Shown in pieces: positions 17,677 to 63,019 of a stretch of 64,000 nucleotides of DNA. The stretch is from Takakia lepidozioides (taxonomy: Eukaryota; Plantae; Bryophyta), in the NCBI GenBank assembly GCA_030704615.1, contig CM060731.1:77004001-77068000 (forward strand), in the 5' to 3' direction. Positions within the stretch are counted from its first letter, which is position 1. Every line of letters starts with the position of its first letter. Position numbers and translations under genes: made by a program. The notes beneath the pieces are model-generated. The model saw only the letters and a program-made list of their open reading frames with translations. It ran no database searches and was not told where the DNA came from.

Positions 17677-18208
17677 GTGCAAAAGTCTAGACAAGCTTTT
17701 CTTTTCTCTTAGAGCATGTTTCAATTCGTGAGACTTTATGGCTTCTTCTTTCCCTTCCCTTGTTGGCTCCCCAAGTGTTTGGTGCCTCATGGCGTGGAAG
17801 TTACTTTGAAGGAAAAAGATCAATTTTCTAAAAGTTACACCATTTTTCACTGTAGGGGTCCTAGTCTTTGAAAATGTCAAACTATGGCACTGGGCGTTTA
17901 AGGGTTAAGATTTATATCTTTTGCCAACCGGCAATATACTAAGAAGAGAACCCTAGAACTGGAGGATCTCAACACAAAGTTAGAATTTGTAGCCGGCTGA
18001 TATCAAAAAAATCAAATATATGTGCAATAGTGGTTCAACCTTCAGAGTATGAATTCATTAATCAAATTGAAGGAGATCTTTTTGATTTTTTGAATGGTAC
18101 AACTCAACTATATTTGTAGTCTCAGTTTAGTACATAATTTTATTAAGATTCTTTTGATAATTTTTGGTGTATTTATGTATTCGATGAAAAACAAGTAGTT
18201 GAAAGATA

Positions 18209-18405
18209 TCAATATTTGAATCAAGGCGATTTGTTTGTTTGTTTGAGATGTCCCAAACCACGGGCCCAAGCCCTGATGCTTGGTACGTTGGAAAGCCCTC
18301 GATGAGGAGGGGTGCACCGGCTTGGTCTCATGATTTTTTGGACCAGCGGTGTGGGAAATGTGGAATTTCAAGTACTTTCGGTCGTCGAAAATTCGCACAA
18401 AATAC
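18209..18405 (+). mobile_element. 5' fragment of the non-autonomous Helitron family found at 43-49 kb
   Basis: A|TC start followed by ttggaaagccctcgatgaggaggggtgcaccggcttggtctcatgattttt, near-identical to 47961-48190. Confidence 0.75.
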
Positions 18406-23184: not shown

Positions 23185-23561
23185 TTGATGGACACTCAAT
23201 TGCACATACCACGACTCATTGCACGACTAAGCTTCATACCACAACAGGATAAAATCCTCTCTACCACAAAAACCTGCCTACGAGACCTCCAGCATCATCG
23301 CGCCTGCCAGATAAATCGATCCGATGCGTCCACAGCACCAAATTGAAAGAGAAGTCAAGAGACAAGGTCCACAAGGAACGTGTCCCTGTCCTGTCCACCA
23401 ACCCGCTTCCTCTTGCTGCCAGCCCTAACCCTAACCCTAGCCAGAGCCCTAACTTCTTGAACAGGTGAGCAAGAGTTCCCTTTGCGGAGAAGGGTCCCCT
23501 GCAGGAAGAAGAGAAAGAAGGAAGAGCAGTGTGGGTGAGTGTGGAGCTCTGAGGTGCAGGC
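23185..23561. promoter_or_regulatory. Compact bidirectional promoter/5'UTR with telo-box-like repeats and a probable 5'UTR intron
   Basis: 377 bp separate the divergent ATGs. ccctaaccctaaccctag lies at 23423-23440 and ccctaa at ~23447. Candidate intron gtgagc...gtgcag at 23465-23559. Confidence 0.55.
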
Positions 23562-40300: not shown

Positions 40301-41361
40301 CACATGGCTAAAACTATAGTGAGAACGGTGGCGCTGAGCCTGGATTGCAAAAACACCGAACATAACACACTCTTGGTGCTTGCAACCATTCACATCGTAG
40401 TTTCAATTTAGAGTTTTCGGAACTCAAGATCCAGGTCAGCTGTGGTCATAGAAAAATCAGCCAAAACCAGCTGGTGTTGAATTCCTCTTTCACCAGTCCT
40501 TTCATCTCAAATCCAAGTCTTTTGGAGAGCGGGTAGGCATATGGAGTAGTGATTATCTAGCCAGGGATACGTACATTCATGAAACAAAACTGTTCAAAGT
40601 GTGTTTGTGAGAGAGAGAGAGAGAGAGAGGTGAGTTTAGTGTTGTGAAGTACTTGTAAAATGTGACCTTTTTGCAGGGTACCCAGACTTATCCTGCGGCT
40701 TTTGAGCTCTGCGTACATCCAGCTCAGCAAAAATACTGTCCAGCAGCCGAACGCCCCATAAATAAACTGAAAGATTATGCCATACTTGTATCCCATTTGA
40801 GAGAATGTATACGGCAATGTGAGTATTACAGACCCCACCTGCGCATATTTGCAGCCCGGACCAATAGAGAGTTATGATCATTTGGAAAATTGGAATTGCA
40901 AAACCATCCAATGAGAGTATTCAAGCTAGCTAAGTTGTGGCAAGGACGTGATTCGCACCTGTCCCCACATAACGATCTGTTAAAGCTAGCATTGAGGCAC
41001 GAGAGATGCTCATCTGTGTACATCTCGTTCAGTTCTAATCGAGCTATCTAAATCTCCTGGCTCGTTAAACTAACAGATCTCAACAACTCAATTTCGAACA
41101 TACATTCGCTTCACAGAAAGAGAGAGCCCGGAGTACCTGGGCAGCAACGGCATTTAGCCACGCATCGAACCAGGAGCCCCCATGCCAAATGCTGGCTTTA
41201 ACCACATCCTTCCAGTGCCATCCGAGCACACTGATTTTTCGGGTATCTGCTAGATTTACATGTCCATTTTGTTCCTTAGACAACTCTCCTTTCATTAATT
41301 CTAAGCCTTTCTGTCGCTCCACAGTGACCCCGGTCTCTCCGTTCATTGCTTCCTGATCCAT
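37374..41361 (-). CDS. Divergent AUX1/LAX-family (auxin influx carrier-like) permease, 497 aa, 8 exons
   Basis: Exons 41361-41137, 40838-40653, 40080-39968, 39560-39377, 38972-38875, 38616-38409, 38061-37804 and 37595-37374 splice in frame. AUX1/LAX signatures WHGGS.FDAW, LTLPY.FSQ, QLIAC, GATNIL, HSNAFS, PFFGPINS and GFGFGGWAS..F..CYQC are present. Confidence 0.92.
40608..40629. repeat. (GA)n microsatellite in LAX-like intron 2
   Basis: Perfect GA run. Confidence 0.9.
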
Positions 41362-43123
41362 TTGCTGTGGCTCACCTGCATCAACAATCTAAGTTAGACC
41401 TCTCTTCAACCCCACTTCTGTCGACCCCTCGAAGAGCGCACGAGCCTCTTATACACTCACTCGGATAGCTTGAAACTCCATTACCAGCTGTCGCACCCGT
41501 CGCTCACCCGCATGTACCAATCAAGCTTGCGTTTCGTTCTTATACATGTCTACTTCTTTTTCCCACCTTCACTGTCAGTATGAGCTGCCAACTCCAAACT
41601 CCTTGGAGATGCCCAGTGGCAGAGCGAGTCAACCGGAGCTCGTGAAGCGATGGGGGGAGAATACACGGTCTAAACTCAGCTTGCGATCTCAAAACGATAC
41701 AAATTTAGAACTCGTACCAGATGAATATATCTAGAAATCTTATCAAAATGGAGACCGCGTAGCTGCATTCTCCTATCCACCTGTAATCAATCGCTCTCCT
41801 TTCTCTCGGTTATGGTCGGCAGCTAATAGATTCCATAGCTACCGTCATGGGGCCCGGAAAATGCTCAACTTGTTTACTCATCTGGACGAATCTGCATATA
41901 TCTCTACCACAAACTGGACAGTACTGTCTCTTTCTCTCCCAGCTGCATCCACCTTGAACAGTAGCCGGCCTGGCCTGGCCTGTCTGGCAGATCATCAGTG
42001 AGCAAATGTGTCTCTTGAAGATTATAAGCACCAACTTATTTGTGTGTTTAGAAGAAGAAAGTCTCTTAAACGTTGACAGCCATACGACTATTAAGAATGA
42101 TATATCTTTGTACCGCATATATCTCTTTCTTTTTGGCTCTGTCCCTTCAGGCAGAGACACTGTGCATCATGTTCAAGTCAATGGAAAATGTGGTGGACGG
42201 ACCTCACACCATGTCAAGAGTATAATTAGTCTAAAAGAGCACTTAAATGTAAGCCACGTGGCAGCTTGTCAAAAGTGTTGCTTCAATGGACAGAGCCTCT
42301 CGCGGTTTGCAGCTTGTTTTATCTATATTAGTTTTAGATTTTAGAACTTAATATGTAAGAATATTTGAGAAGTGAATCGACTTTCGTCCGTGGAATTGTG
42401 GTAGGTAGGGGCTGATATATTATGACATGGAACCTGATTCCATTATGACCATCTATTTGAGTCCTGCCAGATCTTCAAGTACTTGACGTAGGAGTACATA
42501 ATATTGCTTACAAAAATTGTTGGTCATTAGAAATGCCTTGGTCCAAAATAGCATGAAAGGTTTGTCTGGCCGTCTTGTAGCTTATGGCCAGCTAAGCCTG
42601 CCTGACCATGAAGAGGTACATTCTGTTGGATATTATGGAGCCTCATTAGGGGTAGTTGTGGTTTTCATCACAAAAGATCTGGCCACATCTACTTGATGAT
42701 TTGTCTGTCCAACATCATTCAAGTGCGATATGCGGAATGCATTAGGTGGTGGAATTGATAAGTTGAAAGGATATATTGGTCTTGCTTCCAATTTGTAATC
42801 ATCAAACTTCTATAATGTGTTCAAACAACTTGAGTAACTTAACCTCCCAATCAAAAGACATGTAGTGCTACAGAGCAAAATAATGTTAGATCCTTGTTAG
42901 AAAAAAACAATTGACACGCTACCAAGCAAGTGTAAATTTATTGCCCTCTTGAGAGCTTTTATCTTCATATGGCAGCATATCTTTGTAGATGTTAGTATTA
43001 TGCCTTACTCCATTATGTCTGTAAGACTGTCAGTTCTAGGCTTCTACTTTATTTCCAGCTTTGTATGTTGTGCTTTTCTCTCCATCTATACATGTTGTGC
43101 TATTAAAATATTTCAATCGTGTA

Positions 43124-46067
43124 TCAATACAATATATGAAGCGAGACGTTTGTTTGTTTGTTTGTTTGTTGTTTTGTTTTGTTTTGTAGCGTTGAGATGT
43201 CCCAAACCGCATGGCCCCAGCCCTGGTGCTTGGTACCGTTGGAAAGCCCTCAACGAGGAGGGGTGCACTGGCTTGGTCTCATGATTTTTGGACATGTGGT
43301 GTGGGAGATACAGAATTCCAATTACTTTTGGTCACTGGAAATTCACAAAAATTAGCAAAAATGACAAAGTGGGCATTCTTGGGACAATGGTTGGAGCCTC
43401 GAGGAGAGAGATATCAAGGGAAAGGTCTCCAGTCTGGTCGTAGGCTCTCTGGAAAAAACAAAATGATCAGATATGGGATTGCACTTGGACTTAAATGACA
43501 TTGGATACTTGGGCCTTTAGATGGAGATGCACTTGGATACATGAATAGAAGATTGCACTTGGGCTTAGATTTCAATTCTTCACACATGGGCCAACAGCAT
43601 AGGCTACACTAGAGGTCATACTTGGGCCTTGACATAGGTGACCCACTTGGATACATAAGAAATTGCACTTGGGCTTAGATTTCAATTCTTCACACATGGG
43701 CCTTGACATAGCTGGCCCAAGTGTCGAGGGTCATCTAAGCCCATGTGCAATCTCCTATGTATCCAAATGCGTCTCATATGTCGAGGCCCAAGTCGACATC
43801 TACAGATTAGGCCCAAGTCGACATCTGCAGTAGCTTGTGCGGCCGATGTGTAAATAATTGAAATCTAAGACCACGTGCAATTTCCTATGTATCCTAGTGC
43901 GTCTCCTATGTCGAGGCCCATCTAAGCCCAAGTACAATCTTTTATGTATCCAAGTGCATCTCCCGCGTAGAGGCCTAAGTGTCCACTGTCATTTAAACCC
44001 AAGTGCAATCTCATATGTATCCAATGACATCTCCCATGTGCGTCTCCTATGTCGAGGCCCATCTAAGCCCAGTGTGCAATCTTTTATGTATTCAAGTGTA
44101 TCTCCCATGTAGATGCCCAAGTGTCCATTGTCATTTCAGACCAAGTGCAATTTCTTATGTATCCCAGTGCGTCTCTTATGTTGAGGCCCAAGTGCGACCT
44201 CTTGTGTAGCCTATGCCGTTGGCCCATGTGTGAAAAATTGAAATCTAAGCCCAAGTGCAATCTTCTATTCATGTATCCAAGTGCATCTCCCATGTAAAGG
44301 CCTAAGTGTGACCTCAAGTGTCCAAAGACCTACATTTTGGGAGATCCACGGGGGGTCACTATATGTATTTTTTTCATATAACGTGGGTACAAAAGTATAT
44401 TTATACTAGGCTATATTTTTTAAATTTTGATTTTTTTTTTCCACCCTATCTTTAGGTAATATTGTAAAACCCTTTGTTTTCTAACACCCTATTTTTTTAT
44501 AATTTTCTTTTGCGACAACTAATTAGACCTATTTTAAATTATCATTTGAAATAATTACAAAAGTTCAAAGCATGTACACAAACAAGTACATTCCATATAA
44601 CATAAGTCAAATGCTAGACCCAAGAAAAAGTTTAATTTTCAATAGCCACGAACTCATTCAAAGCTCCAACATCACTTGGATCTAAAGAATACAAGTCTTG
44701 AGATGGTTCAAATGCCATAGTCACTGTTGAGATTATGGTATTAACATCAATCCACTGTGTATCACTGGAATCATATTTGAACTTCAGGTGACCTCTACCT
44801 GATCTCATCCTGATGGATTAGAGTTGGATGCAATATGAGAAACTTCACAAGGATGGATACATTCTACTGTAGATAAAACCCTTTATTACATTAATTTTTT
44901 AAAGTAAAACTCTGGATTTTTTGTGACCCTTACTGGGTGAAATGATATTGCCTTACCATATTTTATAAGTAACACTTTTCTAAAATTTATCTAAAAAAAT
45001 AAATTACACCCTATATTTGTTCTCACGTGGTTTTGAAAATATGGGGAGTGATCCCCCCAAGGGGAGATCTCTATGTCATTGCCCACTTTGCTATTTTTGC
45101 AATTTCCCCTGTCGAGGCTTCATATATTGATATATCCACTTTGCTATTTTTTGCGAATTTCCAGCGATCAAAAGTATTTGAAATTCCAACTCTCCCACAT
45201 GAAGGGCCAATCATTGCTCCAGGAAAGCCCACTTTGCTGAATTTTCAACGACCCAAAGCACTTGAAATTCTAGATCTCCCACACCGCTGGTCCAAAAATC
45301 ATGAGTCCAAGCCAGTGCACCCCTCCTCACCGAGGACTTTATAACGACACCAAGCACCCACGCCGGCCCCGCGGTTTGGGAGATCTCAATCTCAACGTGA
45401 CAAAACAACAAAACAAAACAGACGTCTCGATTCATATAAGTCCAAGTGCAATCCCCTATATATCTAGCGACCCTCCTGTTTGGGAGATCTAGGCCTAGGG
45501 TAGGCGACCCATGTGTTAAGTCCAAGTGCAATTTCTTACGTATCCAAGTGGGTCTCATATGTCAAGGCCCATGTATGAAGAATTGAAATCTAAGCCCACG
45601 TGCAATTTCTTATGTATCCAAGTGGGTCTCCTATGTCGAGGCCCAAGTGCGACCTCTAGTGTAGCCTATGCCATTGGCCCATGTGTGAAGAATTGAAATC
45701 TAAGCCCAAGTGCAATCTTCTATTCATGTATCCAAGTGCATCTCCCATGTAGAGGCCTAAGTGTCGAGTGTCAAGCAATCCCATATCTAATCAAATTCTT
45801 TTTCAGAGAGCCTATGACCAGATTTGAACCGGAGACCTTTCCCTTGATATTTCTCCCGTCGAGGCTCCAACCAATCTCCCAGGAATGCCCACTTTGCCAT
45901 TTTTGCTACTTTTTGTGAATTTCCAGCGACCAAAAGTATGAGACCAAGTGCACCCCTCCTTGTCGAGGGCTTTCCTCCAACGGCACCAAGCACCAAGGCT
46001 GGGCCCGCGGTTTGGGAGATCTCAACGATGCTACAAAACAAAACAAACGTCTCAATTCATATATTGA
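43124..46067. mobile_element. Two non-autonomous Helitron copies arranged tail-to-tail (plus 43124-~43715; minus 46067-~43720), the latter interrupted
   Basis: A|TC 5' ends at 43124 (+) and 46067 (-); shared ttggaaagccctc..ggggtgcac..ggtctcatgattttt core; internal tgcacttggg(c/a)cttaga minisatellites. Confidence 0.7.
44340..45071. mobile_element. AT-rich insertion with imperfect terminal inverted repeats (MULE/MITE-like)
   Basis: Left gagatcc..gggggg.tcact..tattttt..acgtg resembles the reverse complement of the right end cacgtgg..aaaatat..agtgatcccccc..gagatctc. It interrupts the Helitron repeat. No TSD was resolved. Confidence 0.4.
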
Positions 46068-46177
46068 TAATGGGAGACATCCACCTATTTAATTAATTCT
46101 AAACAAGTATCAAAATCCAAATGTATTGAGATATGACGATATGACCTAGAGAGATTATGTTATTTTTTATGAAGTAA

Positions 46178-49100
46178 TCAATGTATGAATCGAAACGTTT
46201 GTTTTGTTTTGTGTTGTTTTGTAGCGTCGTTGAGATCTCCCAAACCGCGGGGCCCCAGCGCGGGTGCTTGGTGCCATTGGAAAGCCCTCGAGGAGGAGGG
46301 GTGCACCGACTTGGTCTCATGATTTTTGGACAAGCGGTGAGGGAGATGTGGAATTCCAAGTACTTTTGATCGCTGGAAATTCACAAAAATAGCAAAAATG
46401 ACAAAGTGGGCATTCTTTGGACAATGGTTAGAGCCTCGAGGGGAGAGATATAAAGGGAAAGGTCTCCGGTTCAAATCTGGTCGTAGGCTCTGTGGAAAGA
46501 AAACTTACTTAGATGACATTGGACACTTGGGCCAATGGCAAAGGCTACCCTAGAGGTTGCATTTAGGCTTTGATATAGGAGACGCACTTTGATACATAGG
46601 GGATTGCACTTGGACTTAGATGACTCTAGACACTTGTGCCAATGGCATAGGCTACCCTAGACGAGGAAATTTGGGAAAAATAGAAAAGTAGGCTTTCATG
46701 ATTGGCCCTTCATGTGGGAGATTTGGAATTTCAAGTGTTTGCTGGAAATTCACGAAAAATAGCAAAGTGCATATATCAATATATGAAGCCTCGACAGGGG
46801 AGATTGCAAAAATAGCAAAGTGGGTTTTCGGATTGCACTTGGACTTAGGTGACATTGAACACTGGAGGTCGCACTTTGGCCTCTACATGGGAGACGCACA
46901 TGGATACATAGGAGATAGCTGTCGTGCGCATACATATCGCTACACAACTACATCGCTGTCCAAAACCACACAACACATGTGCACACCACACACTAGTATA
47001 CCACTAGTCCACCACTAGTCCAACCACTAGGCTACAACTAGTCAGTCACTAGGCTGCCACTATGCTGCCTACTATGGCAGTCACTAGTCCACACGTCGTA
47101 GTGTGGATTCCCCATGGCGTGGGGTGCACTTGGCTTGACTTGTATTTGAGTGATGAGGTTATATATGCATGAGTTTATGCTTCAGCATTGTGAGCTCGCA
47201 TGAGCTTGTGCTTGTATTCTTCTTCTTTATCACTCGAGAAAGATGAGCCTCCCGCGCTTGCCGTGAAGATAACCACTCCAGGGCCTAAATCTGCCTTGAT
47301 CCCTGGATTGACACTTGGGCCAATCCCAAATGTCAATATGTAAAAGCTAGCTATTTCCTAGCTAGTTTCACACTAGTGGTAAAATAACTTGACATAGCAC
47401 TTGGGCTTAGATTTTCAATTCTTCACACATGGGCCAATGACACAAGCTACCCTAGATCTCCCAAACAATGGGGTCTCTGGATACATAGGGGATTGCATTT
47501 GGACATAGATGACACTGGACACTTGGGCCAACGGCACAGGCTACCGTAGTCAAATATATGAATCGAGATAATTTGTTTGTTTGTTTATTTGTTTTGTCGC
47601 GTAGAGATGTCCCAAACCGCGGGCCCCAGCAGTGGTGTTTGGTACTGTTGGAAAGCCCTCGACGAGGAGGGGTGCACGGGCTTGGTCTCATGATTTTTGG
47701 ACCTGCGGTGTGGGAGATGTGGAATTTCAAGTACTTTAGGTCGCTGGAAATTCACGAAAAATAGTATAAATAGCAAAGTGGGCATTCATGGGACAACGGT
47801 TGGAGCCTTGGCAGGAGAGATATCAAGGCAAAGGTTTCCGGTTCAAATCTGGTTGTAGCCTTTATGGAAAAAAATGATTAGATATGGCTTGCTTCATATA
47901 TTGATGCATTTGGACTTAGATGACATTGGACACTTGGGCCAACAGCACAGGCTACCCTAGTCAATATATGAATCGAGACGTTTGTTTTGTTTTATTTTGT
48001 ATTGTTTGTTTGTTTGTAGCGTGTTTAAATCTCCCAAACCGCGAGGCCCCAACCCTGGTGCTTGGTACCGTTGGAAAGCCCTCGATGAGGAGGGGTGCAC
48101 CGGCTTGGTCTCATGATTTTTGGACCGGCGGTGTGGAAGATGTTGAATTTCAAGTAGTTTTGGTCTTTGGAAACTCACAAAAACTAGCAAAGTGGGCTTT
48201 CCTCCTGGGGGGGTTGTACTTTTTATAAAATGTGCGTATCACGTGCGTTCACCAACTAATCATAAAAACCCCTTATACGGATTCTTGGATAATTTATACC
48301 CCCTCTGTACATACTTTTTGAGGATTATAAAACCCTCTCCTGTACATATACAAAAATTTACAATTTTAAAAAAGTACCCCCTTCTATATGTATATTCTCC
48401 TTTTCAATCATTAAAAAATACCCTCAAATATGTATATGTATGTTTTTACATTATATCAAGTTTATTCATTTAGAAACAGAATAAAATCCAATAAATTAAT
48501 TAAAAAATATCTATTTGCCCTCGATAAGATTGTCAAAGACTTTCCGCTCATTGTAATTGTGTTTCCCTTCAATACCACATAACTTCCATAATACTAATAA
48601 GTTGAGCCAGCTTATAGAGTAGTTTTTAAGCTACCTACCATATTGATTAAATACTAAATAGTACCATGTTTCAGTTCTGAATCAGAATGTATTGTTCAAG
48701 ACATCTTATCTCCAAGAGTCCGGGGTTTTCAGATGTATAATGTTATCTCTGGATTAACCACCAAATGGTACAATATATACTCTTATCTCTGGCTGGCGAT
48801 TTGATCTCGCCGTGCATCGCGGCCTAAACGATGTCCTTACCACTAGACTACCCCTTAAAATTCAACAACCCCCTCCTGTAACATTATATTTAACGTGTTT
48901 TAAACCCCCACATTTATGTATAATGTTGTACATGGGGGGTTTAAAATACCCGGTAGATTGCCGTTTTGGGGCAAGTGTCGTGGCACCGTGGAGATGCTCT
49001 TAGATGACAGTTGACACTTGGGCCAACTGCACAGGCTACCCTAGAGGTCGCACTTGGGCCTCACTTAGGGGACGCACTAGGATACATATGAGATCTTGCA

Positions 49101-49358
49101 GTTGGGCTTAGATGACACTGAGCATTTGGGCCAAGGGCACAAGCTATCCTAGAGGTTGCATTTGGGCCTCCACATAGGAGACATACTTGGATATATAGGG
49201 GATCAATATACTAGGAGATATCAAAGAAGGTCTCCGGTTTAAATCTGGTCGTAGGCTCTGTGGAAAAAAAATGATTGGATATGGCTTGCTTCAAGTATTT
49301 GATGCACTTGGACTTAGATGACATTGGACATTTGGGCCAACGGCACAGGCTACCCTAG
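46178..49358 (+). mobile_element. Head-to-tail tandem array of non-autonomous Helitrons
   Basis: Starts A|TC (46178) and ends CTAG|T (49358). The 3' hairpin t(g/t)tgcc-aac-ggcacagg lies before CTAG. Internal junctions GTAG|TC at 47549/47550 and CTAG|TC at 47960/47961 delimit a 411-bp unit. Confidence 0.75.
46920..47394. mobile_element. Solo LTR (475 bp) with 4-bp TSD, nested in a Helitron
   Basis: Ends TGTC...GACA; TAGC flanks both sides (46916-46919 and 47395-47398); the Helitron repeat resumes across it; the first ~60 bp match 56020-56080. Confidence 0.75.
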
Positions 49359-49489
49359 TATAAGTTATATTAACACATATTTTTATTCACGTAATATATA
49401 TATATATAGGGGAAGTAGCCCCAGTAAAACTTTATTGATAAGGGGAAAAATAAAACCCCATGAGCCCATGAAGCAATTAACACACCAAC

Positions 49490-49899: not shown

Positions 49900-51138
49900 A
49901 GAGTTGATATCTAATATCAGCTGGTATTGTGGTCATGATACTCACACTCATAGCAAGGTTGGGATCTATCCTCCCATCCACATGTGGAAGGTGACATGGC
50001 GCACAATTGCGCACATGGTCCTTCCATACCATGTCATCTCGACCCTCCAGAATCAGCACTCCTGAAGGCAACACCTCTCGGACCCTTAGAATCACACGAC
50101 ATGCTGTGACATCCAAGGTCGTAGACGATGTCTGCTGCAAATACACATAGTCCCCAAAGATGGAAACGTCGAACACCTGGCCAATATCCTCCTCCACATA
50201 TAGTGGCGTACCTCAATGTGTCTCGGTGTTGGCAATAGCAAGGTTCTCAAAAGCCATAGGCATGACTTTCTTGAACAACTCTACCCGTTGGGTACATGTT
50301 TGTGTCAACACATCCAGATCATCAAGGTTGAGGACAACTGCAATCTCCCTGCGAATAGATGCAAACAAATCTAGCTCTCAGCCAAAGAGAAGGAAATAAG
50401 GTGAGAACGAGGCAAGTGATGTTTGCTTGCTAAACCTGTAGCCCATGGCCAACCAAGGTAGCTGAAGGTCCCAATCCCCTAAGTGTCACTTCTGCAAGCC
50501 ATACTTACGCAAGCCTCTCTTGACTGTTTGAACAACTCTCTCTGCCAAGCCATCAGCCTCGGGATGATCCCGAGAAGTAATACGGTGGTCTATCAAGGCT
50601 TGCTCACACAAAGCCTGAAACTCCCCCAAGAACTCTCTCCCCTAGTCCGTGAATACCTCAGCTGGAGCACCAAATTGGCTAAGCATTCGATCTAAGAATG
50701 CATACGCAGCCCCATCACTTGCCTTGTCAAGCAATGCCACTAGTTCAATCCATTTGGAGAAATGTTTCACCATCACCAGCACATACTTGTTATAGCGAAT
50801 CGTTAGTGGCAATGGGGCTGCGAAGTCAAGGCTCTAACAATAGCCCAAACCCATAATGGATAAAGATGTAATTATGGGGTAGGGGCATTGAAAGAAGCCC
50901 ACACACCATGCATCTTGTCACTAACTGTTGCACATCCGTGTGCATGCCCCGCCACCAATACTGTCTTTGCAGCAAACTATGAGTGCGCCGCACCCCAAAA
51001 TGTCCCAACTCCTCATGGGCATGGTGTACCAATCGCGCTCATTATGTTGGATGAGGCACAATCCTCACTCATCCATCCTCCCATACTCGGAGTAAATGAG
51101 TCCCCTCCCACTTGAACCTCTTGGCTCGTTGTAGGATC
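49900..51138 (-). mobile_element. Truncated second copy of the Gypsy family: integrase region
   Basis: HAHEELGHFGVRRTHSLLQRQYWWRGM..C..C; FGAPAEVFTD; TSRDHPEADGLAERVVQ; VREVLPSGVLILEGRD..NCAPCHLP. It is collinear with 56520-57640. Confidence 0.9.
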
Positions 51139-51916: not shown

Positions 51917-54900
51917 ATGGAGGGCGCCCACAACAAGGCAGAAGGTGGCCCTAAGTCTCCCCAGGTTTTTGGTTCTTTGCCACCAGTATCCCCACCTTAT
52001 TATGGTATGCTTCAGTACCCACAAGCTGGCACTCAGTATGGTGAGGGGCAATATGGAAATGTTGCTGCGTATGGGCAGTATGGCCAGTATGCCCCTCCAC
52101 CATATTTGCCACCCCCTAATAGCTATGGGGGTGGCAGACCACCAGACTATCTTCCTGCTTATGGACAGTATGGCTAGTATGGTCCTTGGCCTTCTGGCCA
52201 ACAGCCATGGCCACCAGTCCCTACTTGGCGGGATCCTGCCGTGAATTCTCCTGTGCAAACGGAGATCTCTGAAGGAGGGGAGGGTGCCAATACAAAGAAA
52301 GATAGAACCAATGCTTTAAGGAGGGCTAATAGCACAGCCAAAGTTGAGGCTACGAAGGTGAAGGAAGAGAGGATAGCTGCAGGTCTTCCTCCGACGGTAG
52401 TTATGACGAACACCAAAGGAGCCCCGTATGGTCAGACACGGAATGTATGGCATGCTGCCCTTAAAGGACAGGCTCTTCATAAGCTAGATTGTTCCCTTAC
52501 CATCAACAACCAACCTGATGAACTTGTACACGAAATCAGAGATCACCTGGCTAAGCTATTTTCATATACGCCAAAGCAGTTGACTGACCGCCACCTAAAA
52601 GAAATGATTGGTCGTATAATGAAGAGCCAACGTTTTGATTCACACACTGCGTGGTTGAGTGGCAAGGGGAAACCCATTACTGTATCTGATGACACATGGA
52701 ACAAGCTTGTAAGTTATTGGCAGACAGAGGTGTTCCAAAAAGTGTCGGGCAACATGAAGAAGGCAAATGGTGCAATCCAAAATCCTACCAAAACTGGCCG
52801 TGGTGGGAAGGTAATGGTGGAGCAACGCTTGGTAAGTGGCATCATCACTACTATGTATTTCGTTCCTCATTGAAACACTATGTGTATATAGTGTGCCCTC
52901 ATATTGGTTATTGACTTGTGGGATGTTTTTGTTTGTGGCATGGGTTAAAAAAATTGCAGGAAGCACTATCAGGGTGCTTTCCTACATTACATGAAATTCA
53001 AGAGGGCTCAGTGTCACGGATGTCAGGTGGGAGCGAAATGCGGGTAATTCAATTTTCCACGTTTGCTTTCTTGGTTGCTTCATCTTGATTCTTGCTAGGT
53101 TTTTTTTCTATCTACGTTTTTGGGCTAGGTTTTCTTTCCAATTTTTAGGCAGAAAACTTCCCTTCACTTGTTTCCAGTCCTCCTTAGAGGCTGTAGTGTC
53201 CAAAGCCAGCATTGTTGCCATTAAATTGTCTGATGAAAATAAAGTTAGGCAGAAAACTTCCCTTGACTTGTTTCCAATCTGACTTAGAGGCTGTAGTGTC
53301 CAAAGCCGGGTCTGTTGCCATGATATTGTAAGATGAAAATGAAGTTAGGTAGAAAACTGACCTTCAATTGTTTCCAGTCTGACTCCGTGGGGGAGGGCAT
53401 CATTGTTTTGCTCAAAGTAGGCGCAAGGTCAATGGCCACAAGGCTACAACAAACAACGTCTTATGAGTACATTCTTTCCAATTGTTCAGTGTCGAACCAA
53501 CCAGTCTGACTTAAAGGTTGTAGTGTCCAAAGCCAACATTGTTGCTATTAAATTGTCTGATGAAAATGAAGTTAGGCAGAAAACTTCCCTTGACTTGTTT
53601 CCAATCTGACTTAGAGGCTGTAGTGTCCAAAGCCGGGTCTGTTGCCATGATATTGTCAGATGAAAATGAAGTTAGGCAGAAAACTGACCTTCACTTGTTT
53701 TCAGTCCGTGACATGGGGGAGGGCATCATTGTTTTGCTCAAAGTAGGCGCAAGGTCAATGGCCACAAGGCTACATCAAACAACGTCTTATGAGTACATTC
53801 TTTCCAATTGTTCATGCTAGGTGTTTTTGGTTTGATTCAACTCTGTTTTCATGGATTGGCAGGAAGGGAGTCGGGCATATGCTTTTGTAGTTGGCTGGAT
53901 GGAGGGCTTGGACAAACTGGTGGAATCACAAGGACGCGACATGTCAGATTTAAAATTGCAGATGCAGAGCATGATTGATTACCAAAAAGCCATTGTGGCG
54001 CGATTAGGGATTACTCTACCTGGCCCAGGCCTAGTGACATCTACGTTGGCTGCTTCTGGTGTGAATCAAAATGTTTGGAAGAGCAATTTCAGACGGTAAC
54101 TGGGGCTCACTCTAAGCCCTCATGTATTGCCCTCACTGATGATGGTTTGAATTTGTCCGAGCAGCAGCAAGATACAGGGAAGGCTAGCTGTGAGGTAGAT
54201 GCGGGAGGTCAGCCCAAGCGACATACAAATGAAGTAGCAGTCCAGAGGGCAATGGGCCTGGCACAACAGATTCTGGTATGTTGGTCTCACGAAGTTTACA
54301 TGGGGAGGAAGATGCAGATGCAGAGTGTGACAAAACAGACAAGGATGTTGCTATACTTTCTCCCGCTTACATGTTGAAGCCAGATGACAGTTTGCTTCCT
54401 GGACCAGCGAGGAAGCATTTGCTAATTCTGGACTTAAACGGTTTGCTTTGTGAATCATTTTATTCTGCTACTGGCGTTACATCCCTTCCCAAAGGTTTTG
54501 TGGGGAAGATGTGTGGCAAGAAGATGGTAGTTTTGAGACCACGCTGTTCTGAGTTTTTGCAAAAGTTTTTTGAACACTTTGAGGTGGCAGTGTGGTCTTG
54601 TTGCCAAGCTCGCAACTTCTTCCCAATAGTGGACTATATTTTTACAGCCCACACTAACCTTGTTTTCCAGTGGGATGCCCTTCACTGTGACGAGGATCCA
54701 GTCCTCTCATCTCGTAAGGGGTATGATTCAAAACCGTTGTTATACAAGAACTTGTCTAGAGTCTGGGCAGAGTGGCCAGAATGGAGTCACTTGGACACTG
54801 TTCTTGTTGACGACACACCGCGAAAGGCAGCAAACAATCCTCCATTCAGCGGGATTTTCCCAGCGCCATGGAAAGTGCAACCAGATTTGCCATGTGATGA

Positions 54901-55786
54901 TTATCTAACAAATGTGTTGTGGCCTCTCTTGTGGAAGGCATCCAAAGTTGCCAGTATTCCAGCTTTTTTGGAGTCTCAGCCTGTTTTGGGACAACAACCA
55001 TACAACTTTGCTTCATATCCTACTGAGAAGGTACAAACATTCTGACGCTAAACTTGTGAGGCTTGAACATTTGTGGGTTCCTTCATTGCATTGCTTTCCT
55101 GGATGCTTCTCCTCAGTTCCTTCATTAATGCTAGGTTGTCTTTGCAGGTCTTCATGCTAGGTTTTCTCGTTTGATTCATGCTTGGGTTTTGTTTTCTGTT
55201 CACTCTTCCTTGAGGCTTCACTAATACACTGTTGTTTTCTGGTCTATGACACAGGAACTTGTGACAAAGAAAAGTGGCCTTGTCGAGAACCCAGTAAAGG
55301 CCAGGGGCAAGACTATCGACCTGCCAAGTAGCCCCCCAAAGGAGGGCTCGCAATCACTCGAGACTGCAAATGGAGTAAGTCCAGACCCTCCTCTTGTCTG
55401 TTTCATTTTTTTCCAACCTCGGGGCTATCTTTAATTCCTAAATGCTGAGTGTCGTAGTGGTGCAGGTCATGAGTTTTCACAACTTGTTGTTTTTGTGTGA
55501 GATGGGATCACAGTTCAAGGTGGGTGACGCAGTTCGGCTGCTGGATGTGAACTCCAAACACAAGAAAGTAGGAGTAGGGCTGATTGTTGCTCTTCAAGGT
55601 GCTGTGGTGGGTTACAGGTACCCTGCTGTGCCCCTTGACTATGCATGTGTGTACATCAAAGAGGCAAGTGTGAGTAACACTCCTCTACCATATGTGAATG
55701 GTGTTACGAAACATACCGAATTGGGGCAGGTGGTTGGTCAGACAACGCTTTGGAGTCTAAAGTTGCTGAAAGTTATGGAGCCTTAG
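51917..55786 (+). mobile_element. CACTA/En-Spm TnpA-like spliced gene with an embedded FCP1/NIF-type HAD phosphatase domain; pseudogenised
   Basis: Exons ~51917-52831, 52960-53043, 53863-55030, 55254-55373 and 55466-55786. Ptta/En/Spm-like KPITVSDDTWNKLVSYWQTEVFQKVS..K..N....KTGRGG; NIF domain LLILDLNGLL..LRP..FL..FEVAVWS..KNL..TVLVDDTPRK; C-terminal Tnp1-like VRLLD..KVGVG..P..YACV.I..TPLPY..LGQVVGQTTLW. There is a CAG>TAG stop at 52175 and frameshifts at ~54075 and ~54280. Confidence 0.7.
53145..53815. repeat. Intronic tandem repeat, ~99-bp units within a ~330-bp higher-order duplication
   Basis: ttaggcagaaaact..ttgtttcca..ttagaggctgtagtgtccaaagcc..gatgaaaat.aag is repeated 5-6 times. Confidence 0.85.
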
Positions 55787-56364
55787 AAGGGATAAGAAGC
55801 TAGTATTGCACTGTTTAACAGGGTCCTTGATTCTAGAAGCACCAGAACAAACTAGTACTAGAACAATTCAGCCCATGTGTGGGCTTGCTTATTTTTTGCT
55901 TACTGGGTCTTTTCAGGCATGGATTTTTGGACCTCCTGGCCTTTGAGATGTCCATTGGGACATTGGTCTCATCTGGATTTTAATTTACAGGGCGTGTATT
56001 CCCCTGCACTTGTCTATTTTGTCGTGCGCATACATATCGCTACACAACTACATCGATGTCCAAACCACACCACACATATATGCACAATAAAGTAGTCTGC
56101 CACAATCGCCCCCCTAGCTGGTGGATAGGTCCCTCTACCTCCGGATAGCTACAAGATGTAATAGCCATAGCCGTACTAAGTCCTCTATCACTGTCCCTAT
56201 TGTACTCAAACTCTATAGACCAAGAGGCCGGGTACAAGAGTAGCCCCATCGTTAGTCGCCGTCTTGCAATCTATGTACTTGAGTCAAGACCTCGTGTGTT
56301 CAAGGTCTCCTAGTAGCTTGGCCTTGCATGTCTTGTTAGCCCTCCATGGTTGTATCCACTCCTA

Positions 56365-56510
56365 CTATCCAATGCAATGTGGACATAACCAATCCCCATC
56401 CGGAACCACCTCAAGAGGTGGTGTCAAGCATCCCATATGCCAACCTCGAGAGCATCGATCACACACCAGCATGGTGGCTGCCCCTCTAGCAGACCCACAC
56501 AACATGCACC
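56365..56510 (-). other. PHD finger at the integrase C-terminus
   Basis: CMLCGSARGAATMLVCDRCSRGWHMGCLTPPLEVVPDGDWLCPHC, an intact C4HC3 motif. Confidence 0.92.
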
Positions 56511-59500
56511 TCAAACCTGCAGATACCACTGCCAGGTTTGGGTCAATCCTGCCATCGACATTCGGAAGGTGACATGGCGCACAACTACGCACACGGTCCT
56601 TCCAAGTTATGCCATCCCGACCCTCCAAGACCAAGACGCCTGAGGGCAAGACCTCTCGAACCCTCAAATAACACGTCCTGCAGTCACATCCAGGGTCGTA
56701 GGAGCAGTCTGCTGCAGATAGACATAGTCACCAGGGTTGAATCTCCGAACCCCAGGACGATAGCCCCCACCACGTATGGTAGCATACCTCAACGTATCAC
56801 GGTGTTGTGCAATGGCAAGGTTTCGAAAGCCATGGGCATGCCTCTCTTGAACAACTCTGCACGCTGCTCACATGCACGTGTCCACACTTCCGGATCGTCA
56901 AGGTTAAGAACTGTAGCAGCTTCTCTGCGAATGGATGTAGGCAAATCCGGCTCTCGGCCAAAGAGAAGAAAGTATGGTGAGAAGGAGGCAAGTGATGCTT
57001 GTTTGCTGAACCTGTAGCCCATGGCTAACCAGGGTAACTGAAGGTCCCAATCACCTAGGTGTCCCTTCTGCAAGCCATACTTGCGCAAACCCCTCTTTAC
57101 TGTCTGAACAACTCTCTCTGCCAAGCCATCGGCCTCAGGATGATCCCGAGAAGTGGTGCGGTGGTCTATCAAGGCCACACAATCCAGGAATGCATACGCA
57201 GCTCCCTCACTAGCCTTATCAGGCAATGGAACCAATTCAATCCACTTGGAGAAGTGTTCCACCATCACCAACACGTACTTGTTGTGGCACATGGTCAGTG
57301 GCAACGGCCCTGCGAAGTCAAGACTCCACCTGTAGCCCAATCCCATGATCGGAAGAGGGTGCAATTGTGGAGTAGGGGCGTTGAATGAAGCACGCACCCT
57401 GTCACACACCATGCACCTAACCACAAATTGTTGCACCTCTGTGTGCATACCACGCCACCAATACTGCCCCTGTAGTAGACTATGAGTGCGTCACACCCCA
57501 AAATGCCCCAACTCCTCATGGGCATGCCGCACTAACCGTGCCCGCTGTGTTGGGTGAGGCACAATCCTCACTCGACCATCTTCCCACACTCGGAGCAGGT
57601 GTGTCCCCTCCCACCTGAACCTCTTGGCTCGTTGTAGGATCCGATCCCTCTCCTTGGCAGTCACAGTGGCTGCCGTGTCTCCAGTGCGGAGGTAGTCCAA
57701 CACAACTGAATCCTCATGTATATCTTTGGCGCCACCTTGCTCATTGTTGGCCTCAGGGTCCTCAGACACTTGATCTACAGTCATCCCTGTTGCAGGTCCA
57801 ACCTGGCCTTCCGCTGCCAAGATACACAGAAATGCAGATGCATGCCATCCGGGCACCATCTCCTCGTCCGTCTCACCATGTCACCGAGCTCCAGTGTCAT
57901 CCTGCCGGCTCGTGCATGGATTGCGACTCAACCCATCTGCATTGCGATTGACCAAACCCGGTCGATGCACCACCTGGAAGTCATACTCTTGAAGGATGAG
58001 TGCCCACCGTGCAAGCTTCCCCGTAAGCTTGTTTGACTCCATCAACCACTTGAGTGGTTGGTGATCCGTGACAAGGGTGAAGAGATTGCCATATAGATAG
58101 CACCTGAAGTGTGCCACGGCCCACACTGCAGCTAAGCATTCTCCCTCATATGAGCTATACTTAGACTCTGCAGCATTGTTCGAGCGGCTAGCATAAGCCA
58201 CTACGAACTCTCTTCCCTCATCATCCACCTGTGTGAGCACCGTTCCAAGCCCCAGCATGCTCCAATCTGTATGCAGCTGAAAAGGACGCCCCCTGATAGG
58301 TCGTCTCAAGATGGGCGCCGAGGTCAACCTCGCCTTGAGCTCTTGAAAAGCTTGTTCTTGCTCATCTTCCCACTGCCACTTCTGGTCCACCTTGGTCAGC
58401 TTGGTTAGAGCCTTTGCAATGGCACTGAATCCCTTAACAAACCGTCTGTAATAGTTTGCTAACCCCATGAAAGCTCGAACTCGGCTCACATCCGTGGGGC
58501 GTGGAACCTGTGCAATGGACTCTACCTTAGTCTGCTGTACCCCCAATCCTCCAGGATATATCATGTGACCCAGATACTCAATCTGGTTGTGGAAAAACTT
58601 GCACTTTCCCGGATGTAACTTCAATCCATGCGTCCTCAAGCGCTCAAATACCCCCTGAAGGTGTCTCTCATGCTCCTCCACCGTAGCACTAAAGATGATG
58701 ATGTCATCTATGTAGCACCGAGCAAACTCCACCCCTGCTAGAATCCTGTCCATGACTCTTTGAAACTCAGCGGGAGTTTTTAAGCCCAAATGGTAAGAAC
58801 CGCCACTGGTATAGGCAATCCTTCCCGTGCTCATTGATCCCCCAGAATGCCGTCTTTTGCTTATCCGCCTCCTTGATCGGCAACTGGTGATATCCGGATC
58901 GTAAATCCAACGTGCTAAAGACCTTGGAATGCCCAATGGCATCAAAGATCTCCTCTGGTGTTGGCATGGCATACCTATCGGACTTGGTTTGACGATTTAC
59001 AGGCCGGTAATCACCGCACATACGTCTCTCCGTCCAATTGCCATAGACATCCTTCTTAGCTGGCATCACTGTGGCTGAAGCATACTCTCCACCAGAGAGC
59101 TCCACCAAACCTGCCTCCCAAAGATCCTGAGTTCTCATCTGAATCAAGGACCTCTCCATGTCACTGTATCTATAGGGTCTCCGAAAGATTGGCGTGTCAG
59201 TAGCCAATTCAATGCAAATCTCTTGACCCTTCAGTGCTCCCAAGTCCTTCAAACTGAAGGCAAAGCAATTCCTATAAGCCCTCAGGAACCGCCGCATACG
59301 TCATCTCTCTCCTCCGGTGACAATGGGTCCAATGTCAGGCTCCCAATTGTCCTCCGAAACTGTAACCTTAAGTCCAGTGGGCTTAGAGGTAGAGGACGCG
59401 TCCCGTGGTTGCTATGCTGCAACCTCTTGAGCAGTACTCCCTTCCTGCTCAGTCAATGACAAGGCCTCATCCTGCCCCATCATCTCATCATTGAGAACCT

Positions 59501-59699
59501 CCTCAACCCGAGAAGAATCCCCAACCTCATCCATCACAGCTGCCTTGGCTGCCAACTCCCTCTAGACCTCGAGCACCTCCCACGTGTGCCATGGATGTCT
59601 ACACCCCGTGGTCCTCACCGGCTCGCCCCCACTCGCTGCCTATACCGTCTCGGTAGGCAGAGAGACCGTCAAGGGAAGTGCGCTCTGCACTCTACGTTG

Positions 59700-60690
59700 C
59701 TCAGCCATAGCCAAGCTGATAATCCAGGTCAAGCAATTGAGATCCATTGCTTGCCCCAACACCTGACGACGTGATGCCTCAGAAAGAGAAGACACCGCCG
59801 TGGTCCCAGTGGAAAACCCCATAGCCCGCTCTCGCTAGTCGGCATTAGGCTCCACTAACTGTTGCAACTGAGCATCCCATAGGAGGCCAGGTCCACCATC
59901 CCGAAAAGCATGGGATCCTGGGAAGCTGAGCAGTGTAGGTAATGCTGCTCGTGGTTGACCCACCCTGTTGACCACTGCCAAAGGCAAACGGTCATCGTGT
60001 CTCACACGTTGAGACTGCCTCCCTGTGTCCAAAATGCCATCCACGGTGAGGTGTGCTGGCCGCTGCACCCCATCAAATGCACGCTTGAGTAGTGCGGGTG
60101 GCATCAAGTTAGTCCACCAAAGCCGTGGACGATGAGCCCGTGACCCCACTGCAGCTGCATCCAGCAACACTGCTGACCCAAGCCACGACCGGACTTGATG
60201 CACACTGGCCATCACCCTGGCCCGAGAATCACCCATCAGTGGTACATTCTCCAAGATGTATGCTGGAGATACAGCTTGATGAAGCTGCAAGTAGCGCAAA
60301 ATCCGCACCATCTCCCAAAACAGACCCGTCCTCGAGTCTCGCAATCCATTGCCATGCCCGGCTGATGAATGCCCTTGGCAGGGCCAACTTGCCACTACCA
60401 GATCAATGGAGCCAACCTACTCCAAATCCTGCGCCCCCAGCAAAGAAATGTCTGCTGGCAAGGCTTGTTGGTATCCACGAACTGCAGACACTGGCAACAA
60501 GTCAGGGTATTGCTGTACCAACTGAGCAACATGGCGCAGTGAGACGCATCGTGCAGTCTCATCCCTCTCCACATACAAGTAACGTCGAACTCGTACACCT
60601 GCCTGTAGCACAGCAGCCAATCCGGTGCTGATCCCGCCAAACAAGTCCAGAAGGCAAATGCCTTCATCCGGATACTGCCACACAATAGGT
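59700..60690 (-). pseudogene. DNMT3-like C5-cytosine DNA methyltransferase domain within the Gypsy polyprotein
   Basis: Motif I LLDLFGGI; II YVERD; III ADI; IV DLVVASWPCQGHS; GLFWE; VI ILENV; VIII LDAAAVGSRAHRPRLWWTN; IX RERAMGF; X RRQVLGQAM. There are two internal point stops (60417, 59835). Confidence 0.92.
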
Positions 60691-62520
60691 GTGGTATCCA
60701 ATGGTGACAACTGAGGTGGTCCTGGTGCAATATCCGCACTCTCCTCCTCTCCTGACGGTACAAAAGCCTCTACCCAGGCTTGTTGCACCCGTCGATCAGC
60801 AATCTGCTGCAAATCCTTGCTCGTACCCCACAATGGAGTGTGAGCAACCATGGTAGGCAACTCCGCCATACCATGCATGTCATCCTGCTCTGCTGGAGGT
60901 GGCACATCTTTTGCATGGGCATTGTCTTCCAGCAACTCTCCAGGCCAACTAACTGCAGCTGTAAAGGCGGCTAGTGTTGGCATCTTGCCCCGCTGGGCAG
61001 CCGCTATACCCCCAATGAATGTCACAGGGAGCTGTGCACGGCGACCATCGCCTGACTACCATCCAGGCCTGTAGGATGCTGACTCCTCCCAAAAGTCCAG
61101 GGTGAAGCCCATGGGGTATAACACTGCCCCACCAACGAGGACATCGTAAGAGACCGCGTCTGTCACAATGGCCTTGGCTCGCATTACTGAGCCATCGATA
61201 GGATGATCCGGCTGCAGTCTAATGGCCAACTGATGCCGTGTCATGCCCCGAGCCTGCTCTGATCCTCCCAGAGATGTCTGTATCTGGAAAGGACAAGGCT
61301 CTATATCCGCCTCCATGAGGCCCAAACCTGCAATAGTAGCTCTGCCCAACATCAGTGGCTGAGCTCCCGAGTCCAACAAGACCCGCAGTGGCCGGTACTT
61401 CCTGCCTGCCGGTCCACTCAAAGAGAAAATGCCATCCTGGTTGTCTAACAAGACAACTCCAGGTGTCACCATGGCGCGCTCAAAGGCTGGCCTAGCTGGC
61501 AGCTCCGTCAACCTGGCAGCTGCAGCTTGCCAGGGCGCAGCCGTGGCAGTCTTGACCCTCATATCCGAGGATCCCTCTGCCACTATACCTTCCACTAACT
61601 CCGCAGAAGATGAAGTGACCTCCCCACTCTCGCAGAGTGTTGCTGCTAGTCTGAACACTGCAGCTGGTCTTACCCCCGGCGTCGCAATCATGGTTGCCGA
61701 AAACAGTGGGGCTTGACACACAGAGGTGGCTGCCCCCAATAACACACCGGCTGCACTAGCCTTGGTAGTAGGTGTCAGTGCTGCACGTGTAGCTCTCCCC
61801 AATGACATAGAAACCTCCGCCTCGGTAACAGTCGGGCAAGAACTAGGTGCCGTGGATGGCGTTGACACTGTCTCCGCCAAGGTGAATGACTGAGGCAGCC
61901 TCGCTTGACGGCTTGCCTCCCCACGTTGTGGATCCAACTCCACCTCTGCACCTCGTGGCTCAGGAACTCGTGCTGCTCCTCGAGTCACGGCTGCAGCAGA
62001 CTCCACCTGCTCTAGTGGTAGTGCTGCTCCGCACATGAATCCCATGCCTCCCATATCTCCTCCCTCAGGAGCAGGAGGTGGGCCATCCCGCCTGGGAGCC
62101 GGTACCGCCTGAGCTATAGCCATGGCAGCGAGCCTCTGCTCTAGCTGCTGAAGCCGATTGGCCATGCCTTGGTCAACACCCTGACCTCCGCGTCCTTGGC
62201 CATGTGGAGCTTGCCCCTCGTGCCCGACCACCTCGTCCTCTTTGGGCTGGTCCACCTCGCCCCCGGCCACCATTATTCCCTTGGAACTGGGCGCAACTCA
62301 GGATGCAAGTCATAACACTGGGAATCTCCATGCCCATACTTGTCGCAATGCCCACACTGCAACTGTGCAGGCTGTGCTTGTGCCGGCCTTTTGCCACTCT
62401 CTGGGCAATCTCTCTTGACATGGGGTCCTCCACATGTCCAACATATCACCCCTGGTTGCTGTTGGCCTGCAAAAGATGCCACGGGCCTCTGCACCTGAGG
62501 CGCCGGGTAGACACGTGCGT

Positions 62521-63019
62521 CACTGCGGATTTGACACGTCACAACTTCAGGCGTGATCATATGACTATATGTCTGCACAGTGATGCCTACATGGAAAGTT
62601 GTTAGTAGGACACCTGTTGCATTTCAGATGTGACATGTGGCACTTAGACAGAATATATGACTAGCATATATGACTATGTATCTTTACACGTGGTGAAATA
62701 TGGATAAAAGAATGTCGTGTCATATAATGCCACGTGTTCTAGTTCGAGCAGGGTTTATGCCATCTGTCATCAAGAATGTTATTTGAAAATAATTTAATAG
62801 TTTATATTCATAATTTTAAATTCTTAAAGTTATATTTTATTTTAAAAACAGGGGAATATCAGCTTGGTAAATTTTATTAAATGGTTTTATTTTTTATTTT
62901 TTAATATTATATATTAAAATAGATTAAATGATTTAAATTCTTCATTACATGGTGAAATTCCAATAAACAGAATGGACCCCTCTTGCATACTAGTTAGCAA
63001 CCACAAGGACAATCAAAAT
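62521..63019. mobile_element. Possible CACTG-type (En/Spm) element end that truncates gag
   Basis: Gag similarity stops exactly at CACTG (62521), followed by repeated catatgactat/acacgtg motifs and an AT-rich tract. The other end is not seen. Confidence 0.35.

Follow-up and report, generated by a model that had tools for sequence, protein, structure and literature searches.

The closest described system, KnitGypsy-Dnmt3, comes from the alga Klebsormidium nitens (de Mendoza et al. 2018, PMC5890265), and the available text of that paper reports it from this species only. It is a Gypsy retrotransposon that has DIRS-like repeats (A1 ... B A2 B) and encodes a DNMT3-like domain, intronless and non-permuted, on which purifying selection acts. 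According to its authors, the methyltransferase shares an open reading frame (ORF) with reverse transcriptase (RT) and RNase H; the same text makes no mention of a PHD finger, and 4-bp target duplications were not found in it either. SymbioDIRS-Dnmt3 and SymbioLINE-Dnmt, from the same paper, are also retrotransposon-borne C5 methyltransferases, but they belong to other element classes or DNMT clades. The EpiLTRs of Cymbomonas and Euglena (bioRxiv 10.64898/2026.05.21.726589) likewise pair a DNMT with a chromatin reader, although their DNMTs are sister to DNMT4 and are accompanied by DAM and a chromodomain. PHDs have already been described in green-algal Gypsy elements (PMC9940879, PMC8557442); Gypsy-7a_cRei of Chlamydomonas carries one in its polyprotein, proposed to reduce harmful insertions, but the domain list given for it in the available text has no methyltransferase (PMC9940879). 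Here, an element of this kind is described in a 64-kb stretch of the bryophyte Takakia lepidozioides (contig CM060731.1, positions 77,004,001 to 77,068,000; hereafter the window). It lies on the minus strand from 56020 to about 62600, and there is little doubt that it is a green-plant Gypsy-DNMT3 element, with the PR-RT-RH-IN order (protease, RT, RNase H, integrase) and DDE integrase of Ty3/Gypsy. The concept and, probably, the lineage are already published (PMC5890265).

The methyltransferase domain (59697..60668, minus strand) matched the PF00145 profile with 44.5 bits against a cut-off of 22 (HMMER, E 1.8e-11), and its motifs follow the canonical order LFGG, YVE, WPCQG, LENV, HRPRLWW, ERAMGF and GQAMD. 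The closest solved structures by sequence are DNMT3A/3B (E 3e-10). The DRM structure 4onj aligned with residues 3-126 of the query alone, through its C-terminal residues 230-347, as expected from a non-permuted query. The predicted structure (pLDDT 86.7) has DNMT3A as its top match (6f57, E 2.6e-17, TM 0.71, 21% identity), and all 33 matches listed in the fold search are DNMT3A/B/C. By motif order, sequence and predicted fold the domain is DNMT3-like. A first reading of the locus made from its letters alone (the sequence-only reading) had listed a full, non-permuted set of C5-methyltransferase motifs of DNMT3 type without the DRM permutation, and these results bear it out. Phage C5 enzymes also match (425 records; among the 10 listed, the best E is 1e-15 and the best match has about 31% identity over 57% of the relative P0002), and any reading of its deeper origin is therefore tentative. 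Regarding host enzymes, fold and motif order are common to the window domain, to PpDNMT3a/b (Yaari et al. 2019, PMC6453930), of which PpDNMT3b carries out de novo CG and CHH methylation, and to animal DNMT3A/B. However, the window domain has only about 21% identity to DNMT3A in the structural alignment, lacks the PWWP, ADD and plant-specific extra domains, and is encoded by a transposon.

The domain search returned 214 relatives, and the 120 listed include proteins of Calypogeia fissa, Sphagnum troendelagicum, S. tenellum, Marchantia polymorpha, M. paleacea and Riccia sorocarpa. The best 80 of 181 metagenome stretches were kept as related loci. These cluster with Sphagnum proteins in the tree and are all decayed: none holds an intact copy, and a stop-free stretch of at least 500 aa was found in one only. 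The order Gag knuckle-PR-DNMT-RT-RH-IN-PHD is kept in them wherever the contig includes the neighbours. In the host organism itself, 76,673 contigs of run X1 map on the element region, with a summed depth of 0.86-1.24 M over the methyltransferase and 0.86-1.32 M over RT and integrase, compared with 177 at one flank position; summed contig depth is a sign of a very high-copy repeat and not a copy number. Since the depth over the methyltransferase equals that over RT and integrase, the element is a very abundant host repeat that retains the domain. The chance insertion of a host DNMT3 gene, or of another element, into one copy was also considered; it is ruled out because the domain holds its position in dozens of loci as well as in the named genomes, and further excluded by the lack of introns, the even depth across the element and the congruent trees, and nothing was found in its favour.

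Concerning selection, the window domain compared with 46 loci gave a proportion of synonymous differences (pS) of 0.72 and of nonsynonymous differences (pN) of 0.205, with pN of 0.17 in RT, 0.155 in RT/RH, 0.156 in integrase and 0.29 in protease. The corresponding ratio of nonsynonymous to synonymous divergence (dN/dS) of the methyltransferase is about 0.09, a rough value with synonymous sites near saturation. The catalytic Pro is kept in all 46 loci, the Cys in 44 and the ENV Glu in 43, and the RxR arginines in 31 each. Neutral evolution of the methyltransferase was therefore not seen, and these comparisons support the domain as an integral family trait that appears to be under purifying selection.

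Intact frames for the enzyme were found in Marchantia, where a cluster of 18 related proteins includes five full-length Gag-PR-DNMT frames of 1278-1281 aa, 95-96% alike and with all motifs kept. They are annotated as hypothetical proteins (e.g. Mp_4g09160, Mp_5g06330 and Mp_Vg00370), and the window methyltransferase is 74% identical to them in the domain. All five retain the S-adenosylmethionine (SAM) loop, the catalytic Cys, the ENV Glu and both arginines.

Furthermore, an in-frame stop separates the methyltransferase from RT. In the window, 59406..59414 (minus strand) reads TAG CAA CCA, with the stop at 59414-59412, and among 684 X1 contigs this site shows no variant at or above 2%, with 20% and 10% of variation at the nearby positions 59417 and 59418. 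Among the 47 related loci in which the linker is complete, 45 have a stop at the matching place, 32 codons before RT, and the bases after it are mostly CAA CCC ATG; the linker is in frame in 34 of these 47 decayed loci. The intact Marchantia frames terminate 77 aa past the methyltransferase domain, and 13 further related proteins do so 83-142 aa past it. CAR YYA after UAG is the readthrough signal of tobacco mosaic virus, and rice gypsy elements include readthrough candidates (PMC2754532). In the host family this signal is perfect and invariant, with no ATG at the matching place. The enzyme would lie on the Gag-side product because the fixed stop lies between methyltransferase and RT; Gag-PR-DNMT is likely the major product, and RT-RH-IN-PHD would arise by readthrough. 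This modifies the proposal of the sequence-only reading that the domain is a part of Pol and not a later insertion: it is integral in the related loci, but because of the conserved stop the enzyme forms the last part of a Gag-PR-DNMT protein and precedes RT. It also differs from KnitGypsy-Dnmt3 as described by its authors, in that the window family has the same frame with a fixed stop between the two parts, although in five related proteins a single ORF does span the DNMT, RT and RNase H.

The integrase-linked PHD finger pointed out in the same reading was recovered as well (56374..56508, minus strand; PF00628, E 4.1e-11), at the integrase C-terminus. It is out of frame in the window copy, in frame with the integrase in 17 of 23 related loci, and part of the full-length polyproteins of relatives. 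The nearest solved PHDs are those of CHD4, KDM5B, PHF12, KDM5A, ATXR5 and PHF21A, which read unmethylated histone H3 lysine 4 (H3K4). Readers of methylated H3K4 generally have a Trp two residues ahead of the His; at this position Gly is found in 51 of 57 relatives and Trp in none. Hence, the finger is predicted to be of the type that reads unmethylated H3K4. No chromodomain was found by Pfam after the integrase of the window element, which has the PHD only, and one relative (P0171) carries both. The pairing of DNMT and PHD is the rule in algal-type relatives.

The ends of the family are unusual. No pair of long terminal repeats (LTRs) was found within the 64-kb window, and two complete identical LTRs are not the structure of the relatives, which end A...B-A-B or A...B in place of ordinary LTRs. 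Repeat A (339 bp) stands at the 5' end of the relatives and B-A-B at the 3' end, B being 115 bp long. B-A-B was seen in seven loci, four of which also have A1, and twelve others have a single B after the PHD. This arrangement agrees with the DIRS-like repeats of KnitGypsy-Dnmt3 (PMC5890265). The elements begin with TGTC and end with GACA or AACA (TG...CA). The seven loci having both ends all show a 4-bp target duplication, exact in five and with one transition in two; L060 and L064 are one insertion, hence the seven represent six independent insertions. In 8 of 8 cases the B|A junction consists of the element end, two bases and the element start (GACA-NN-TGTC). DIRS or Ngaro elements with a tyrosine recombinase are not the case here, with a DDE integrase and target duplications present instead. 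The plant Ty3/gypsy lineages surveyed by Neumann et al. (2019, PMC6317226) are alike in PR-RT-RH-IN order and TG...CA ends, with 4-bp duplications in 6.2% of theirs, but that survey demanded two near-identical LTRs, and methyltransferase and PHD go unmentioned in its available text. The A-B-A-B ends may evade searches for LTR pairs.

In the window, the 3' end of the element is a single terminal repeat B ending in GACA (56020..56106, minus strand), whose terminal motif is shared with repeat B of the relatives. It is preceded by a conserved block with a terminal purine run, a putative polypurine tract (56107..56140, minus strand), with 84-90% identity to the block before B in 14 loci. The boundary at 56020 is marked by 65 X1 contigs with dissimilar loose ends before this position. 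The presence of just one B behind this shared purine block would fit recombination between B1 and B2. A separate B-type end was observed at 46920-47004, 85% identical to 56020-56103 and with GCTATC after it, as at the B|A junction, and a second fragment of the same family at 49949-51138 (minus strand) runs from the integrase to just before the PHD with about 81% identity.

Regarding these data as a whole, a mechanism can be proposed, to which we give a probability of about 0.45: the packaged enzyme, made at Gag level, would methylate the new cDNA, RT and integrase would be supplied by readthrough, and the PHD would steer integration off active promoters. Most ribosomes would halt after the methyltransferase, and the occasional readthrough of TAG CAA CCA would give RT, RNase H and the integrase-PHD. 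The protease would free the methyltransferase inside the particle, and the B|A junction would template both integrase ends during reverse transcription. De novo methylation of the new DNA could take place ahead of integration or during it, so that this DNA would arrive marked like the transposon DNA of the host, and the PHD may guide the integrase to nucleosomes with unmethylated H3K4.

Several observations weigh against this proposal, and some of them favour other explanations. The Sphagnum-like loci mostly read CAA CCC, so that the last base of CAR YYA is missed, and have an ATG behind it, at +7, which fits re-initiation. Moreover, four bryophyte gene models from Marchantia and Sphagnum (P0133, P0135, P0141 and P0168) bridge methyltransferase and RT with a linker of reduced length, as would be expected from splicing or from an artefact of gene prediction. 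The cDNA could be methylated as proposed while RT and integrase are obtained through removal of the stop by splicing, or through re-initiation; this is distinctly improbable given the invariant signal without ATG in the host family and the linker that stays in frame in most decayed loci. The stop is missing in five relatives, and the domain stands after RNase H in 20 of 53 long matches. Gag-level dosage is therefore not required, since such relatives exist. The assignment of the PHD is also a point of weakness, as its specificity rests on similarity and general rules.

Other adverse points concern the enzyme itself. Among the decayed loci, dN/dS is 0.56 in the methyltransferase and 0.57 in the protease, compared with 0.34-0.47 in RT, RNase H and integrase (RT 0.39, RT/RH 0.34); we read the higher values as decay after insertion. 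Of 120 long proteins, 58 have W/F-E-C rather than P-C in motif IV, and this change from Pro to Glu before the catalytic Cys is frequent in algal-type members. The Klebsormidium domain produced no methylation in yeast, a result that its authors call inconclusive (PMC5890265). In favour of the proposal, the dinoflagellate SymbioDIRS-Dnmt3 domains did methylate CG de novo in yeast (PMC5890265). The altered motif and the yeast result with the Klebsormidium domain could mean that selection maintains the domain for a role that is non-catalytic or does not concern DNA methylation, such as binding of DNA or RNA in the particle, shielding of the cDNA or methylation of RNA. We consider such a role unlikely, as the catalytic residues are retained in all five Marchantia frames, the Cys persists even in nearly all decayed loci, and the predicted fold matches DNMT3.

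On the other hand, an active enzyme could do most of its work in the nucleus once the element has integrated, either on copies already resident there or in trans on host DNA. It would then act as a self-limiting silencer, or else supply de novo methylation more generally. A single cDNA would need far less enzyme than expression at Gag level would supply, copies of the family abound in the host, and the idea that slowed transposition may benefit the host was raised in PMC5890265. Nevertheless, the domain remains fused in a particle-forming polyprotein in all three arrangements, and the Klebsormidium methylome is not unusual (PMC5890265). CpG depletion is uninformative here, with an observed/expected ratio of 0.53 in the element and 0.48 in the host background; neither CpG nor CHG ratios separate the element from the host. 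We regard this action in trans as rather improbable too.

To place the family in a wider range, a profile search gave 554 representatives at E up to 1e-30, whose best 150 contained 139 new ones. The domain lies between RNase H and integrase in 86 of these and after the protease or before RT in 12, and 41 were left unclassed. Among 20 new relatives looked up, seven are from Closterium, one from Scenedesmus and one from K. nitens; its place in the polyprotein is after the protease in the Klebsormidium and Closterium proteins, and in Scenedesmus it comes between RNase H and integrase. The K. nitens protein GAQ93235.1 consists of a Gag knuckle, protease and methyltransferase domain, is 37.6% identical over 322 aa to the window domain, and is presumably a copy of KnitGypsy-Dnmt3. 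A large group formed by P0144, P0150, P0269 and the 86 RH-DNMT-IN proteins carries the same methyltransferase and PHD, many with Glu for Pro before the catalytic Cys. It should also be noted that other Gypsy elements with 42-55% identity adjoin family copies (L072:12586-14466 and L011:1-2034), and the former, seen as a fragment, has RH-IN-PHD and a 3' repeat pair.

Quick trees were built with SH-aLRT support only and drawn with midpoint rooting. Neither host DNMT3 nor prokaryotic enzymes were among their rows, P0016 was excluded for its short coverage, and row L011 in one tree is a different element, entered twice. The window element falls within a group supported at 99-100% that holds all named bryophyte rows, outside the Marchantia-Sphagnum subgroup. 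The RH-DNMT-IN type is apart from the PR-DNMT type in the methyltransferase and RT/RH trees alike, except for two RH-DNMT-IN rows across the midpoint in one tree and three in another, and the K. nitens row has a long, poorly placed branch in the unrooted quick tree. One old lineage is the simplest reading of this range and these trees. Because the named relatives span liverworts, Sphagnum, Closterium, Klebsormidium and Scenedesmus, the window element is probably the land-plant branch of KnitGypsy-Dnmt3 and not a new capture.

The sequence-only reading granted that the concept is not wholly new and stressed the setting of DNMT plus PHD in an embryophyte-type genome. No land-plant Gypsy-DNMT3 was found in the full-text literature, although subscription papers, theses, Repbase entries and some supplements outside the search could hold a bryophyte record, and neither the conserved stop nor the chlorophyte RH-DNMT-IN-PHD form of the domain was found there. 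Two later papers citing PMC5890265 say 'streptophytes' and leave land plants unnamed in their available text, and Marchantia, Sphagnum and Physcomitrium are absent from one supplement file of PMC12344493. The land-plant setting holds as far as that search goes, but the novelty is reduced by the same domain in Klebsormidium, Closterium and Scenedesmus and by the frequent pairing in algal-type relatives.

The Takakia copy itself is dead and 5'-truncated. ORF reading and Pfam gave the minus-strand order Gag knuckles, protease, C5-methyltransferase, RT, RNase H, integrase and PHD, and a single frame (62297-58769), interrupted by stops only, holds the protease, the methyltransferase and the first portion of RT. 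The 3' portion of gag with two CCHC knuckles (62276..62560, minus strand) has no Pfam match and is 59% identical to residues 290-354 of Mp_4g09160, whose residues 1-289 have no match within the window. All sequence 5' of about 62600, repeat A included, is missing, and on this side the summed X1 depth falls from 772k to 13k over 62175-62975. Another repeat of very high depth (62976-63242) lies directly upstream of the truncated end. The aspartic protease with LLDSG (about 61059..61460, minus strand) has a weak match to PF13975 (E 0.055), is 57% identical to the Marchantia protease and occupies the position upstream of the methyltransferase seen in the related loci. RT and RNase H (57983..59300, minus strand) match PF00078 in two pieces (E 5.4e-9 and 8.5e-16) and PF17917 (E 9.8e-36). 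The DDE integrase (56670..57610, minus strand) comprises an H2C2 zinc finger (PF17921, E 2.3e-7), core (PF00665, E 2.9e-4) and C-terminal part; an alignment with 13 loci revealed a deletion of 28 codons at 57175/57176, with loss of the second catalytic Asp. Frameshifts lie near 62290, 58775 (within RT-RNase H), 56800 and 56670-56730. The stops at 60419, 59303 and 57493 are private to this copy, because nearly all the X1 contig depth reads otherwise there, and the relative P0016 is open at the place matching the stop at 59837, the second of two copy-specific stops within the methyltransferase (60419 and 59837). The copy had rightly been called dead, though the stop at 59414-59412 is a family feature and not damage.

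Directly beside the 3' end of the retroelement there is a CACTA-like region (52178-55786, plus strand; Transposase_24, E 1.9e-4), which holds an intronless NIF-phosphatase ORF (54233-55045; PF03031, E 5.4e-14), possibly transposon cargo. A dense nest of short direct and inverted repeats, similar to miniature inverted-repeat transposable elements, occupies 43100-49400, with a further copy near 18200-18400. Host genes encode an Ole e 1-like proline-rich protein (11010-11657, minus strand), a spliced WDR3 (23553-28827, plus strand) and an amino-acid transporter (37759-40871, minus strand), and a leucine-rich repeat gene is also present in the window. Ole e 1 proteins are typical of land plants, and this set of genes, with the CACTA transposase and the bryophyte neighbours in the trees, agrees with a land-plant host.

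It has been an open question since 2018 whether the methyltransferases carried by retrotransposons act on the cDNA of their own element; one reason is that the hosts known so far are difficult to manipulate. It becomes testable because intact, near-identical frames exist in the transformable model Marchantia polymorpha. These results also widen the range of Gypsy-DNMT3, previously a single alga, to include land plants and chlorophytes, point to a plant retroelement with a candidate readthrough site, and describe integrase-made insertions with split-repeat ends. In practice, the counts of DNA methyltransferase genes in bryophytes can be inflated by transposon copies. In a wider and tentative view, which we consider possible and on balance doubtful, an ancient Gypsy clade of chlorophytes, Klebsormidium, zygnematophytes and land plants would have had a DNMT3-type writer from early in green-plant evolution onwards, in most cases together with a PHD reader. 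The writer would have moved within the polyprotein and would be expressed at Gag level through a leaky stop in land plants. Given intact copies that would have been amplified recently in Marchantia and the very many copies of this host, it could be a hidden, transposon-encoded supply of de novo methylation, marking the cDNA of its own element in advance. If this is true, the writer of this clade may shape the methylomes of non-seed plants, and the split-repeat ends would explain why LTR surveys have missed it.

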